This document shows, piece by piece, positions 10,397 to 63,952 of a stretch of 64,000 bases of DNA; position 1 is the first letter of the stretch; every line of letters starts with the position of its first letter. Where the stretch lies: assembly GCA_003971905.1 (NCBI GenBank), contig RSEE01000030.1:558001-622000 (forward strand), written 5' to 3'. This DNA is from Moniliella sp. 'wahieum'. Its lineage: Eukaryota. Below the pieces are notes generated by a model, which made no database searches, was not told the DNA's origin, and saw nothing but the letters and a program-made list of their open reading frames with translations. The position numbers and the translations under genes were made by a program.

Positions 10397-11689
10397 GGTG
10401 GCTAAGCTGACAGTGTGGTGTGAGCCTAGAGGGGGTGGGGATAGGAGCTGGGATGAAGATGCTGGATGTGGGGGGGGGGCGGGCTATATATACACCAGTG
10501 GCGGAGGTTGCGTCACCAGCGCATCAGCCTGGGGCGTCTGGCCAACCAGCTGGGGTGGTAGTGGTGTCGCTTTGTGCGGGGGGGCAGGCTGGCGCCGTGC
10601 CTGCCGCATGCGACAACATTTCACTTTTACCCACCGCGATGATCGATGACGCGGACGGAGGTCTAGACGAGCAGCCAACACTGGCCGGGTGCTGCAGGCG
10701 GTTTGTCCGCTACGCCCGAATCCGTTTCCTCCGCCGGAGCGGGGATTTTGAAATGTGCAGCTCCGCTCGGACCAGCCCCGGTCACCCGTGTCACAGATCA
10801 CCGCCGCAGTCAGCGTTGCAGTCACCGAACGCCGTGCAATGCCCAAATACACAGTGGGCCGCGGGTGTGCTCTTGCACTGGCACCAGCCTGCGTAGGCCC
10901 AGCGCCAGTCTGGCGATCGGTTCGGCTCCGCCTCCCGTCTCGGCTCCAGCCTGCTCCCGCCTGCTCCCGCCGCGGCGGCTGGGGGAAGCCGGCGGCTTGG
11001 AGCGCTTAGAAAACCCAAGCGCTTATTAGCGCCGCTGAATTATATTGGCGGCGGATGGGATTGATTAAGATTACCTACTTGTTCATTAGTTGCAATTTAA
11101 AATTTAAAATTTAACCCTTGATCATGTTACGCCATAGTCGTTAATCGATAATCGAGATAATCAGCTTAATCATCATGTTCTCCATCTCGCGTCCATGTCA
11201 CATGTCACGTCCTACTTGCCACACCCGAGCGCGCTTCGGCACGCGTGCAACCGTTGCCCTTTCTGCTAAGGCGTCACACTTAGCGCTTACAGACCGCCGC
11301 GCATCCAATGCTACGCTATGTTGAGTCACCGGGTGGCTCGTGCTTTGGCCAATGTCCCATCAGTTCCTCCTCATGCACCTGGGAGTTCTGTTTTTTCTCT
11401 CCTGTTTTTCTTTGTTCAGCAGCATAGCCCCTGGTGGCGACTCGCTGCTTGATGTTCTTCAGTAGGCGTTGCTGGTTGGCTTAGACCACCACCACCCATC
11501 AGTGCGATTGCATCACCCTCGAGGACCATCTGGACTCCAGGTCTCATCACGCTATTGTATGGACGCCGAAACAGCACTACCGATTCCCAGCGGCTACTAG
11601 AGGACACACCCAACAACACATGCCAAAGGAGGATATTCTTGCAGTATGGAGCTGCTGGTACAGGCAACAGTACAGGCATTGACATCGCC

Positions 11690-12000
11690 TTACCCGCCAA
11701 AGCCGTAGAGGGTGCGGCCCTGGCGCTTGAGGGCGTAGACGACGTCGAGGGATGTGACGGTTTTGCGCTTGGCGTGCTCAGTGTAGGTAACCGCATCGCG
11801 AATGACCGACTCGAGGAAAAGCTTCAACACACACGGGTCTCGTCGTAAATGAGGCCGCTGATGCGCTTCACACCACCACGGCGTGCAAGGCGGCGAATAG
11901 CAGGCTTGGTAATGCCTTGGATGTTGTCACGCAGAATCTTGCGGTGACGCTTAGCGCCACCTTTGCCAAGACCTTTGCCACCTTTGCCACGACCAGTCAT
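11690..12000 (-). CDS. HHF1: Histone H4; one 1-nt deletion near 11830; probable 5'-UTR intron ~12003-12073
   Basis: Reverse strand reads [56 protein letters not shown]/..[45 protein letters not shown] gtatgt...ctgac...cag intron ends just before the ATG. Confidence 0.97.
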
Positions 12001-60209: not shown

Positions 60210-63200
60210 GGATCTGAGATCGGAGATGTGAGATAGCCCGATAGTCGATGGTCGATAGTCGATAGTCCATCGTCGATAGCATCGGAGTCTGGTCAGGAGG
60301 TGGGCCGCAGGACGGGGGGCAGTGCTCGCCTGTGCTGGCCTCCTTTCGGAGCGTTTGCCTTCGGGCGCTCAGGCTGAGCGCTGGCTCATGCATGATTCGC
60401 TGATGCATCATGCATTTGCCTTCGGATCCCCAGGCCGAAGAGAGAAATGACTGTTGTGACATTGGCAGGGAGCAGTGAAAAGGGGCACCTGCAGGCTATC
60501 GCCTCTCGTTCACGGAACGTACAGCTTCAGGAGATCGGGGCCCAGATCTCAGATGCCCGATCGATCAGACAACGGGGCCGGTGAATGCGGGAACTATGTA
60601 TGTCTGTCCCCCAGAAGCACTCCACCTCCAGGCCCAGCCCAAACCCGAATGCAGTCAAATTTGAAATCGAGTCGGAGGGACGTTGGGTGCACAGCCAGCG
60701 TGGGAGGGGTGGGGCCGCAGAGAGCAGCCGGAGGCAGACCAGAGAAGGGCCGCGACTGCCGACACAGCGAGCAACATACGGCCATCGATCATCGATCAGC
60801 GCTGAGGCGCTGAGGCTCAGCAAGCAGAGCGAGGGGGAGCCAGGCCTCGATCATCGATCACACGCACATTCATACGCACACGTCCAGCACTGCGCTGCTG
60901 TTGCTCAGCGCCCGAGCAGCACTCAGCACGAAATGGCGTCACACGTCACGCAACCCTCCAGTCATTTCGTCACTAGCCCTAGTCATGCATGTCACCTGTC
61001 ATGCATGAGGCGACTGTGAAACTTGCATCACATGCATCACAACGCCACTTCGTCAGCGCGTCACCGGCCAGAGCGTCACACGTCGCCGCGTCAGCGCGTC
61101 AGCATCCAATGCCCGCGTCGGCAGCGCACCAAAAGCATCTTGGTATACATAGGTTGCGGGGCCATCTTGCCACAACAGGCCCCACGCTATTCCTTGGTCG
61201 TGGTCTTGCCACTACTACGTAGTGGTACAGGACATATGTTGTAGACTGCGCCGATTGCTTCAAACGGACGGCAGCTGGCACCCGAGACGATCGTAAGCTG
61301 ATCGGTGAATGGTGAAAGGTGGTTGGTGGCCGCTGGGCGCTGGTTCAAGGTGGCCTAGTTTGGCCTGCGCTTGTACAGACTCAAGAGCTCCTTCCGCACC
61401 CGCAGGGCACCGGCCCCCTACAGCACTGCCCCCGATCAGTCACCATGCACCACCGGTCTCCGGCCACCGGCCACGCGTCACCGCGTCACCCGTCACACGC
61501 AGCGCCGGGGAAATGGGCGCAGTGTCACTGGGTCGTTGACCACAGGGACTAGGGAGTACTGAGTGGTGAGATTGAGAGGCACTCTAACCCTCAGCCTGAG
61601 GAGCCTGGCTGCTCTGTCGCTCAGATTTCGATCGCTGAACCTCAGCCGGCGAAGTTACCGGATACCGCGTTGAACGTTGAACTCAACGTTTTCCCTGTGG
61701 TAGACCAAATACTCAGGCCCAGGGGCTTCCTCGGGGCGTCAGGATCGGCACTCCTTCGAAACCGAGAGACGAGGGCAACGAGTGGATATTGCACAGTTTG
61801 AAGAGTGTCCTTTGAGATCTGTATTACCTGGTTACCGGTTACCGGTTACCGGCCTTACCGGTTACCGGCTAGGCCTGAGTTAGACCTTAGGGGTGCTGTA
61901 CCAGCAGACGTCAGTTCGTGGCGGGGCCACCGGTCTGGCCTCGGGTATCTGGCTGGACAGGCGGGTGTGGCTAAGCGCTAAAAACGCCAACGAAGCTGGA
62001 ATCGGTCATGCGCAGATCGCTTTGCGAGGTGTACTGAGTGTCCTGACTAGCTGAGTCTGAGTTCTGCTTAGGCGCTCAGGCGCTCAGGCGCTCAGGTCTC
62101 AGGCTTGGCCATCAAAAAAGACTCGCTCATGGCAGGCTCTATGTTCGGCCCTGTTCGGCCTCACTGGCTCAGTAGCCACTAATGCACTAATCGATCATCT
62201 CGATCATCCAAATATGCGTGACATGTGACATGTGACATGGTGCGGATTCAGAATTCAGACCTCAGGATATTCAGACCGAAGCCCGAGGCCAGCAACATGA
62301 TGCATGATGTATGATGCATGATGCATGATGCGCGGGGGGTGACGCGTGACGCGTGACGAGTGACGCGTTGATCATGGTGCCACCATATCACCCGCTATCG
62401 ATCACTTCGATCACTAGATCACTAGTCACTATAAGTCACTAGTACTCACTATGTATTCACTCGCCACTCGATCAATAGTGGATCATCGATCATCGATCAT
62501 TAGTCACGCGCCACGCGTCACGAAGTCACGCTCAGAAACTATCCTCGAATCATTAATCATTAATCATTAATCATTCACCACCATGTGCATCATGCATGAG
62601 TGCCTCAGCATCAATTATTAGTCGCTTCGGCCGTACGGTACTACCAGTATACTGCCTGTACTGCCCCGGTGCTGGCGAGCAAATTGCTCCACCGGGTTTG
62701 GGTGGTTGAGCGGTCGGGCCTGGTTTGGTCCGCAAAAAGACCGATGTCGATGACGACAAGGTGTTGCGGGGTGGGCGAGCGCAGCTAGCGCGCTACCCCC
62801 TAACTTGTGCCGGTGATCGACAGTGTCGCGTGACGCGTTGCCGGTTATACTGGGGTATGTGACACGTGCCCGCCACAGTAGGCCACAGTCGATCTCCCCT
62901 AGCGGCTAAAAGATCTAATGTATGATGCATGATTTGCATGATTGAGGCTCTTCAAGCTTCAAGCTTCAAGCGTCCAGCTTCTTTAGGCCTCAGGCGCAGG
63001 AATAGTGTGACGTTGTACCACTTGTGTACCAGCCATGGCAACGGCCCTCTCGGGAATAGGGAAAACCGCAAGAAAACCATCGATTTATCGATTACCGATT
63101 CTTATCGATTACCAGTTACCGGTTACCGGCTCCCCGTTACCGAGGTTACCGGTTACCGGCTTACCTAGTTACCTAGTTACCGATTACCGATTACCGGGGA

Positions 63201-63952
63201 CTGGTTTCCGGTTACCGGCAAGGCCTTAGGCATTACGCGCTACGCGTTACACGTTACGCGCCTTCAAGCTTAAGGCCTATGGACCACGGCCAAATAAGGC
63301 GCTAAACGCCTTACAGCTTACGCTCTCGTTTGCCTAACCTCCTGTGGGGCTATGCGTTTTGTCCAACCATGCACTATGGTACTACGCCTGAAATTGGATC
63401 GATTACGCATTACCACGTTACCCCTTCTGCATTTTGCCCCTCCACATCGAGACATTTCTCCTGCGTTGCCTTTCTGGACGCTCGATGGTCGATGCTCGAT
63501 GGTCGATGGTCTTGGCCCCGCCCAGCTGGGTACGTAGCGCCGATCAGATGAGTGTGAATTCCAATCGCTTTTGCACCGGGGGTACATTCGGAACCGAACA
63601 TGTCCCAAGGCAGAAGTGAGTCGCCAGCATTGCACCGCACTCCTGTACTCCACCCTATGTGTTAAGCTTTCAAGCTTCACGCTTTGAGTCTGTCCCCAAG
63701 CCTCGGCCTCACGTGCTGCTGCGGTCCGAGGTCGGTCAAATATGTACTTTCGCTTCAGACTTGGGCCGTTGGAGCGTGGTCGTCCGGTCGTGGACCAGAT
63801 AGAGGGACGGGCTAGCGTCACGCACTGAATCCCACACTTCCGTTTGTGAGTACTGTGAGTTGTGATTCTCCCGCTGACAGGTGATGCATGATGTCTGAGC
63901 ATGGTCATTTCGATCATTTACCACCGATCACCGATCACCGATCATCGATCAT
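60210..63952. repeat. Gene-free region dense in period-7 palindromic micro-arrays
   Basis: (GGTTACC)n 61830-61868 and 63105-63218; (ACATGTG)n 62218-62239; (ATGCATG)n 62296-62331; (ACGCGTG)n 62339-62368; (ATCGATC)n 62481-62500; (ATTAATC)n 62548-62575; (AAGCTTC)n 62950-62971; (ACCGATC)n/ATCGATC 63923-63952. Confidence 0.9.

Follow-up and report, generated by a model that had tools for sequence, protein, structure and literature searches.

Tandem micro-arrays built on a four-base palindrome beside T-N-A in the non-coding DNA of Moniliella sp. 'wahieum'

The non-coding DNA in a 64,000-nucleotide stretch from Moniliella sp. 'wahieum' (contig RSEE01000030.1, positions 558,001 to 622,000; hereafter the window) carries many short tandem arrays with a 7-base-pair (bp) period, whose units differ in sequence and obey a common structural rule. 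A first-pass annotation had written this rule as A-X-Y-Y'-X'-T-N, a 6-bp palindrome bounded by A and T and followed by one spacer base. The pattern is real, is specific for T-N-A and accepts any core; the better description, however, is a 4-bp palindrome adjoining T-N-A, plus 0–2 nucleotides (nt). We propose that the arrays are lineage-specific non-coding micro-satellites, born through short insertions anchored at T-N-A and enlarged by slippage, a reading to which we assign a probability of roughly 0.4.

Ten-mers composed of TNA, a 4-bp palindrome and a second TNA with the same N number 79, where 2.1 would be expected. The 15 other flank classes of this 10-mer (A-N-T, C-N-G, G-N-C and so on) occur 2–11 times, with 1–7 expected. 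Among 53 two-copy period-7 runs, 35 are fully self-complementary about a T-N-A centre, the background for the rule being 3.3%; C-N-G serves as the centre once, and A-N-T and G-N-C never. Runs centred on T-N-A have three paired arms in 35 cases, two in none and one in four. The enrichment is all-or-none, not graded. A similar selectivity is observed for pseudo-palindromic heptamers: in non-coding DNA, 112 of the 235 centred on T-N-A, about half, are in a tandem state, lying within period-7 runs of at least 10 nt. The corresponding values for the other centres are 6/106 (A-N-T), 12/147 (C-N-G) and 9/147 (G-N-C). In coding-like DNA only 5 of 71 T-N-A-centred heptamers lie in such runs, and none of these reaches 14 nt. 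Most period-7 arrays that appear non-palindromic are one substitution away from the rule, with TGG/CCA in place of TGA/TCA, or with CCGA as an intermediate between TCGA and CCGG.

The period-8 and period-9 relatives of the arrays separate the two parts of the rule. A 4-bp palindrome touches TNA in 11 of 15 period-8 and 7 of 15 period-9 two-copy runs, compared with a background of 5–6%, and modules such as CGCG+TCAG, ACGT+TCAC and TCA+CT+AGCT form no A..T hexamer. Because these runs keep TNA and the palindrome without the hexamer, T-N-A is a separate module, and the A..T hexamer is a consequence of the 7-bp register. The period-8 runs comprise two copies each of GCGTCAGC (12275–12290, TCA beside a 4-bp palindrome), CGTTCACA (12347–12362, ACGT+TCAC) and ACGTTCAC (20232–20247), three copies of CGTTGACG (51718–51741, TGA+CGCG+T), 2.1 copies of CCTCAGCG (57630–57646), 2.2 of GCGCTGAG (60799–60816), 2.1 each of CGCGTCAG (61087–61103) and CGCGTCAC (61474–61490), 3.4 of AGGCGCTC (62070–62096), 2.1 of GATCACTA (62409–62425) and 2.6 of TTACCTAG (63161–63181). 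With period 9 we find TTGTGAACG (2.1 copies, 12301–12319), TCACTAGCT (3.3 copies, 51648–51677) and, in two copies each, CATGATCGA (51451–51468), TGCATCACA (61024–61041), TCGATCATC (62191–62208), TCGATCACT (62398–62415) and TGCATGATT (62926–62943).

Arrays were listed with Tandem Repeats Finder and with a script for exact runs. The former recovered the arrays at the positions given in the first-pass annotation, and the latter reproduced them. The array placed there at ~39825–39866 is in fact two short, oppositely oriented runs (39825–39837 and 39852–39865), and AGTACT is represented by a single 11-nt run, at 61554. Perfect period-7 runs of at least 15 nt number 39. The unit is a 6-bp palindrome plus one base in 27 of these and is non-palindromic in the other 12. 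All 27 palindromic units are A..T-bounded, none being bounded by C, G or T only; for one unit, AAATTT+A, there is the alternative reading TTTAAA+A. Lowering the threshold to 14 nt gives 53 runs (35 A..T, one G..C, 17 non-palindromic, no C..G and no T..A), whereas 18 runs reach 20 nt (14 A..T, four non-palindromic). Two copies of GAATTC+A (62246–62259) form the sole palindromic period-7 run that is not A..T-bounded. This run still contains TCA.

Chance fails as an explanation of these numbers. A palindromic hexamer recurs at an offset of 7 in 24 A-bounded cases and one T-bounded case, and in no C- or G-bounded case, whereas 50 dinucleotide-preserving shuffles give means of 0.02–0.08 per class and a maximum of 1. 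Period 7 also stands out among runs of at least three copies, with 13 runs compared with one, five, two and one at periods 5, 6, 8 and 9, respectively. At a threshold of 11 nt, 82 loci obey the rule, whereas 30 second-order Markov simulations average 3.3 and never exceed 6. All 16 possible A..T hexamers occur among these loci, where the first-pass annotation had spoken of most of them. The most frequent 10- and 12-mers found at separate places in the window are likewise rule-obeying units.

The arrays are excluded from coding DNA. With a rough coding mask, 80 of the 82 loci fall outside coding-like sequence, in agreement with the intergenic placement first described, and their density in about 36 kb of non-coding DNA is about two per kb. 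The spacer N is G or C in 64 of the 82 loci. Its strand orientation is mixed along the window, with only local runs of one orientation, and array orientation is mixed even around single genes. Some units seem more prone to expansion than others: those with ATGCAT, AAGCTT and ATTAAT reach 22–28 nt, while AGATCT+G, present at nine loci in total, never exceeds 13 nt (12–13 nt at 13282, 42623, 47243, 56643 and 56747).

Across 96 ten-mers, the spacer N is unchanged in 79, complemented in 10 and replaced by another base in seven. Since reflection about the centre of the hexamer would complement N, the arrays are direct repeats, that is, translations of one unit. No period-14 alternation of N and N' was found in the window, where the three period-14 runs are point variants. 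The two alternating reflections invoked in the first-pass annotation as the generator of the arrays are not supported. The loci are also independent of one another. Comparison of the window with itself yielded six non-local matches, five between repeats and one between a pair of transfer RNA (tRNA) genes, and revealed no flanks shared among loci.

Run lengths cluster at 12–14, 20–22 and 27–28 nt, and copy numbers form a continuous series from 2 to about 7. The shortest runs show preferred registers. Ten of the fifteen 12-nt runs read TNAXY-Y'X'-TNAXY or its mirror (binomial p = 0.0024 against two of seven registers), and 10 of the fourteen 13-nt runs consist of this form plus one base (p = 0.0011). 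Read as T-purine-A (TRA), the 13-nt runs carry the extra base on the 5' side, with a left to right ratio of 10 : 1 (p = 0.012). In the same reading, short runs end sharply on the 3' side, after TRA or TRA plus two bases, and more loosely on the 5' side; 12- and 13-nt runs with this polarity are found, for example, at 13282, 39597, 51461 and 51700. Overall, 69 of 164 run ends coincide with T-N-A edges or with the core centre, where 47 are expected (p = 0.00015). These registers are compatible with a duplication of 5–6 local bases together with 1–2 palindromic filler bases, and a T-N-A-anchored cut-and-fill at array birth would match the 12- and 13-nt runs. Decay is visible in imperfect copies and 1-nt insertions or deletions (indels), and a stepwise core change (TCGA, CCGA, CCGG) is observed within a single region, 63060–63230.

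We therefore favor a reading in two stages, birth and growth. Birth would be an insertion next to T-N-A, usually of 7 nt and more rarely of 8 or 9, with the insert repeating 5–7 nt of local sequence and completing a perfect 4-bp palindrome. Because any of the 16 cores is accepted, and only perfect ones, this step would include self-pairing of a strand or its pairing with the twin strand. The lack of A-N-T, C-N-G and G-N-C centres would further call for some factor that recognizes T-N-A. One possible route is a nick or staggered cut there, followed by palindromic fill-in. Replication slippage would then add or remove whole units, and point mutations would erode them.

Several points weigh against this reading. 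We infer the insertion step, and any enzyme behind it, from the run registers; these rest on small samples and were chosen after inspection of the data, which calls for a Bonferroni factor of about 4. Taken over all 82 runs, start phases differ little, with 6–16 per phase. The 11-, 12- and 13-nt classes are nearly equal (18, 15 and 14), as the decay of simple 14-nt duplications likewise predicts. The bias of N toward G or C is left unaccounted for. The coding mask, assembled from Pfam-supported open reading frames (ORFs) and codon-usage segments, is rough, and, with evidence from a single window, selection on function may play a part. As a separate candidate, decay of 14-nt duplications alone was rejected: it accounts for the equal size of the three classes and not for the register bias.

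A more specific version of T-N-A-anchored insertion, which we put forward only tentatively, supposes that this fungal lineage has an endogenous process in which opening of the DNA falls to a T-N-A reader (a nickase, a domesticated transposase or a topoisomerase-like enzyme), and repair then duplicates 5–6 local bases and adds 1–2 palindromic ones. Were this true, perfect palindromes would be made de novo from the sequence beside T-N-A, repeated events and slippage would build much of the intergenic DNA, and the process would constitute a new programmed or semi-programmed insertional mutagenesis in a eukaryote. Microsatellites are usually described by unit length and composition, whereas here a structural rule spans 16 unrelated sequences. 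That the rule is all-or-none and anchored in sequence suggests a specific molecular step, such as a DNA-end or loop-processing activity. If that step is real, the genome would be a natural record of the activity, and comparing relatives with and without the signature could reveal the gene responsible. It would also illustrate how the intergenic DNA of a compact fungal genome can lengthen in steps of 7 bp, and the arrays would be usable as dense strain markers.

Pure slippage, without any special enzyme, is an unlikely alternative in which any 7-mer may be duplicated and self-complementary slipped loops fold and so escape loop repair, with the result that quasi-palindromic units would arise and expand far more often. 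The arrays would then be a 7-base analogue of the hairpin-forming CNG triplet repeats, whose hairpins drive expansion; in yeast, palindromic loops reportedly evade mismatch repair (Nag et al. 1989). In agreement with this alternative, the arrays repeat their unit directly, differ in copy number by whole units and decay in the ordinary way, their copy numbers form a continuous series, and every unit is self-complementary bar one base. Pure slippage, however, expects a unit free of structural rule, and 35 of the 53 two-copy runs obey one that has a background of 3.3%. We predicted the fold energy of three-copy arrays with DNA parameters and obtained means of −2.96 kcal/mol for A-bounded, −3.10 for T-bounded, −5.29 for C-bounded and −5.40 for G-bounded units. 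These energies favor C- and G-bounded units and do not split A from T, whereas the observed split is 35 A..T, one G..C, no C..G and no T..A. Hairpin strength is thus not the selector, because the strongest folders are barely or never seen and A-bounded units fold about as well as T-bounded ones. Hairpin stability fails as an explanation, and the first-pass view that slippage alone would not select the grammar is borne out for slippage combined with hairpin strength, given that the predicted energies are weakest for A- and T-bounded units. The absence of T-N-A-centred runs with two paired arms, and the retention of TNA and the 4-bp palindrome without a palindromic hexamer at periods 8 and 9, also argue against pure slippage.

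It is distinctly less probable that the arrays are functional cis-elements, whether homotypic protein-binding clusters or chromatin or terminator elements, kept by selection. Their confinement to non-coding DNA would suit such a role, as would the position of many of them upstream of genes, among them those for histone H4, malate synthase, a GATA factor and a C2H2 factor. Some units may also have counterparts among the promoter motifs known from fungi, with ACGCGT similar to the MluI cell-cycle box and TTACCGG to a Reb1 site. All 16 cores are in use, however, and we know of no protein that reads any palindrome. Single copies of the 4-bp palindrome with TNA outside short periodic runs are not enriched (98 seen, 88 expected); the module is not a standalone site, and single-site function fails as an explanation. 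Further arguments against cis-elements are the mixed orientation around single genes, the free decay of array copies and a ten-mer at 8708–8717 that lies between two convergent 3' ends, over the malate synthase stop codon.

We regard it as very unlikely that the arrays were left behind by excision of a cut-and-paste transposon with T-N-A target duplications, of the PIF/Harbinger or IS5-like type, where every cycle of insertion and excision would leave TNA, terminal nucleotides of the element and TNA. IS5-group and PIF/Harbinger elements duplicate TNA or TWA (W, A or T), and PIF/Harbinger follows the TWA rule with TTA/TAA. A 3-bp T-N-A duplication and 2+2 terminal bases would give the 7-bp period and make it palindromic automatically, and N is indeed preserved within arrays. 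The 16 cores, however, would require about 16 element families, and N is mostly G or C rather than A or T. Bare TNA-core-TNA accounts for only 3 of the 63 loci with a 10-mer, and run lengths show no peak at 7k+3. No transposase or integrase family was detected among the window ORFs scanned with Pfam (149 + 98, plus 10 partly overlapping those), and no element-like common flanks are present. The PIF/Harbinger footprints suggested in the first-pass annotation are thus not supported. Three footprint models were also compared with run registers and rejected: TNA duplication with element ends (start at T, 10 nt) and 4-bp duplication with a TNA remnant (start at the core, 11 nt) each place three loci in the predicted register, and 5-bp symmetric duplication plus 2 nt (start at X', 12 nt) places one. 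A mobile palindromic element resembling miniature inverted-repeat transposable elements or repetitive extragenic palindromes was rejected as well, the self-comparison showing no common ends or flanking element sequence. On the reading we favor, the arrays are neither binding sites nor mobile elements.

Fold-back, hairpin-primed synthesis, which the first-pass annotation had proposed with alternating reflection centres 3.5 bp apart, is highly improbable. It would explain the local dyads at the core centre and at N, as well as the 10-bp palindromes TNA-core-TN'A, of which 10 are seen and about 1.6 expected (a third of the 4.9 expected for different-N cases). Array orientation flips at such palindromes, for instance at TCAAGCTTGA (position 51675), and self-priming hairpin repeats lengthen in vitro (PMC13061963). 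The preservation of N in most ten-mers and the lack of N/N' alternation already contradict fold-back synthesis as the main route. Lastly, an assembly or base-calling artefact is scarcely credible: the 1-nt frame shift in the coding sequence for histone H4 may stem from an assembly indel, but 82 loci with 16 units, kept out of coding DNA and decaying by ordinary mutation, as well as the presence of (ATCGATC)n in independent metagenome assemblies, speak against it.

To place the arrays in a wider context, metagenome contigs were scanned for three ATCGATC units. Stretches with at least three units number at least 119, with G+C contents from 30% to 74%, and none of those listed is related to the window beyond the repeats by blastn or tblastx. 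In 551 kb of listed stretches, other palindromic period-7 runs are A-bounded in three cases and otherwise bounded in 10, and TNA 10-mers with cores other than TCGA number 38, or about 0.07 per kb. In the window, the 79 TNA 10-mers of all cores amount to about 1.2 per kb in 64 kb. None of the matches listed shows the multi-core grammar at a density like that of the window; one stretch (L048) is mildly similar but sparse. Some of the listed stretches have neighboring (CGATCG+N) arrays, a C-bounded class not found in the window. The grammar is not a general property of DNA, and to judge from these sequence comparisons the arrays are most likely lineage-specific. A description of the T-N-A/palindrome grammar was not found in the full-text literature searched, including searches with the array strings; the mitochondrial (A)n(T)n palindromes of PMC7218506 are unrelated to the window arrays. 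The arrays apparently represent an undescribed structural class of fungal micro-satellite.

The individual period-7 arrays, given here as perfect runs unless stated and without strand assignment, are spread along the window. At its left end are (AAATTT+A) with 3.0 copies (11094–11114), (ACATGT+C) with 2.1 (11194–11208) and (ATCGAT+C) with 2.9 (12208–12227), the last lying upstream of the histone H4 coding sequence, with one TGCA unit ahead of it that keeps the TCA phase. These are followed by (AGGCCT+G) with 2.4 copies (19643–19659), (AAGCTT+G) with 2.3 (28419–28434), (ACCGGT+A) with 2.1 (28730–28744), (ATCGAT+C) with 2.9 (31764–31783), (ATGCAT+C) with 2.1 (39521–39535) and (ACATGT+A) with 3.0 (40342–40362). 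An (ACATGT+G) array at 42808–42841 consists of two perfect runs, 42808–42825 and 42826–42841, separated by a 1-nt deletion, and adjoins (ATGCAT+G) with 3.9 copies (42839–42865), which shares its TGA phase. The tRNA gene at 49763–49861 has (AACGTT+G) in 2.1 copies (49382–49396) about 370 bp upstream. Within a chain of TCA/TGA-phased units at 51648–51741 lies (AAGCTT+G) with 3.1 copies (51677–51698), and further arrays are (ACGCGT+C) with 2.6 copies (51804–51821) and (AAGCTT+C) with 3.0 (57749–57769). A long period-7 array of (CCCTAAC), with 4.6 copies at 46497–46528, is the complement of GTTAGGG. This interstitial 7-base repeat is telomere-like and belongs to the few long period-7 arrays that break the palindrome rule.

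The densest cluster, 60001–64000, contains 32 of the 82 loci of at least 11 nt and is located upstream of a C2H2 zinc-finger gene (58260–59336, minus strand). This region has no Pfam-supported gene, consists almost entirely of short tandem units of 7–10 bases and is cut by the end of the window. Its arrays are (ATCGAT+C) with 2.3 copies (60783–60798), (AACGTT+G) with 2.1 (61668–61682), (ACCGGT+T) at 61830–61868 (perfect at 61830–61852 and imperfect after), (ACATGT+G) with 3.1 (62218–62239), (ATGCAT+G) with 5.1 (62296–62331; one substitution, perfect at 62311–62331), (ACGCGT+G) with 4.3 (62339–62368; one substitution, perfect at 62339–62358), (ATCGAT+C) with 2.9 (62481–62500), (ATTAAT+C) with 4.0 (62548–62575) and (AAGCTT+C) with 3.1 (62950–62971). 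Next comes the decaying and re-expanding TTA-phased region at 63060–63230, with units TTA+TCGA, TTA+CCGA, TTA+CCGG and TTA+CCTAG and with perfect (ACCGGT+T) runs at 63115–63129 and 63144–63159. Across the window there are 55 further short loci of 11–14 nt, for example at 10637, 13282, 17379, 42623, 47243, 55131, 56643 and 56747. A G-run (GCGGGGGG) adjoins palindromic arrays at two unrelated places, 42787–42808 and 62331–62339, the second of which lies between the ATGCAT+G and ACGCGT+G arrays.

The window has a G+C content of 57% and is nuclear DNA with eukaryotic housekeeping genes, which were identified by Pfam searches on the ORFs. The periodicity of G+C at third codon positions was too weak for mapping genes, and Pfam on ORFs together with the codon-usage mask was used instead. 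Pfam-supported genes encode a cobalamin-independent methionine synthase, Sin3, malate synthase, histones, a VHS/GAT/SH3 protein, Spt6, an SNF2 helicase, a GATA factor, a Sec7/PH protein, cofilin and a C2H2 factor. The malate synthase gene (8715–10313, minus strand) has no introns, and its product shares 79% identity with the enzyme of Tilletiaria anomala, 76% with that of Malassezia and 74% with that of Tilletia. These identities place the source fungus in the Ustilaginomycotina, the group allied to the smuts. The histone H4 coding sequence (11690–12000, minus strand) is split over two frames offset by one base, with residues 1–55 encoded at 12000–11836 and the C-terminal 48 residues at 11836–11690. 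The reading lacks the expected Arg-Gly, and the split reflects either a frameshifted copy or an assembly indel.

Two tRNA genes on the plus strand, at 49763–49861 and 51988–52085, were identified with Rfam and missed by ARAGORN in its bacterial setting. Each is about 99 nt long, which leaves room for an intron, and they are 93% identical across 105 bp. One of the densest array clusters, 51448–51821, lies 170–540 bp upstream of the second gene. The longest ORF without a Pfam match (51948–53354, plus strand, 469 amino acids) overlaps this tRNA gene in its 5' part, and at least its start is probably not coding; codon usage in its 3' part (52359–53354) is coding-like.

Among known systems, the CNG triplet repeats are close to the arrays in being direct tandem units that are self-complementary bar one base, with a strand that can pair with itself, and CNG-type hairpin microsatellites grow by slippage. 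They differ in having a period of 3, whereas the window arrays have period 7 (also 8 and 9), 16 cores and a centre that is always T-N-A. In the window, moreover, copy numbers are tiny (2–7), loci are very numerous, with 82 spread over about 36 kb of non-coding DNA, and the observed class is not the one that predicted hairpin strength would favor. CNG-type microsatellites are not known to have a sequence anchor or an all-core rule.

Target-site duplications and P-nucleotide footprints, as left by hAT elements, V(D)J-type hairpin ends, PIF/Harbinger and IS5, share with the arrays a short duplication with 1–2 bases that complete a palindrome. The T-N-A targets of PIF/Harbinger or IS5-type elements share the anchor itself, and the 12- and 13-nt runs of the window favor TNAXY-Y'X'-TNAXY. 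These systems need an element, whereas no element or transposase was found in the window. In the arrays, N is mostly G or C, copies are multiple, and the palindrome is centred 2 nt away from T-N-A instead of at its edge.

A third comparison is with the in-vitro elongation of self-complementary tandem repeats by polymerases, reportedly described by Ogata and Miura (2000). In passages of PMC13061963, polymerases extend self-amplifying hairpin oligonucleotides in vitro, and the likeness to the window arrays lies in fold-back repeats that are extended without an outside template. Such self-elongation would complement N, unlike what is seen in the window, and those passages contain no T-N-A rule. 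With their head-to-tail direct copies, their copy-number series and their mutational decay, the arrays behave as microsatellites, to which they add a structural rule anchored at T-N-A.

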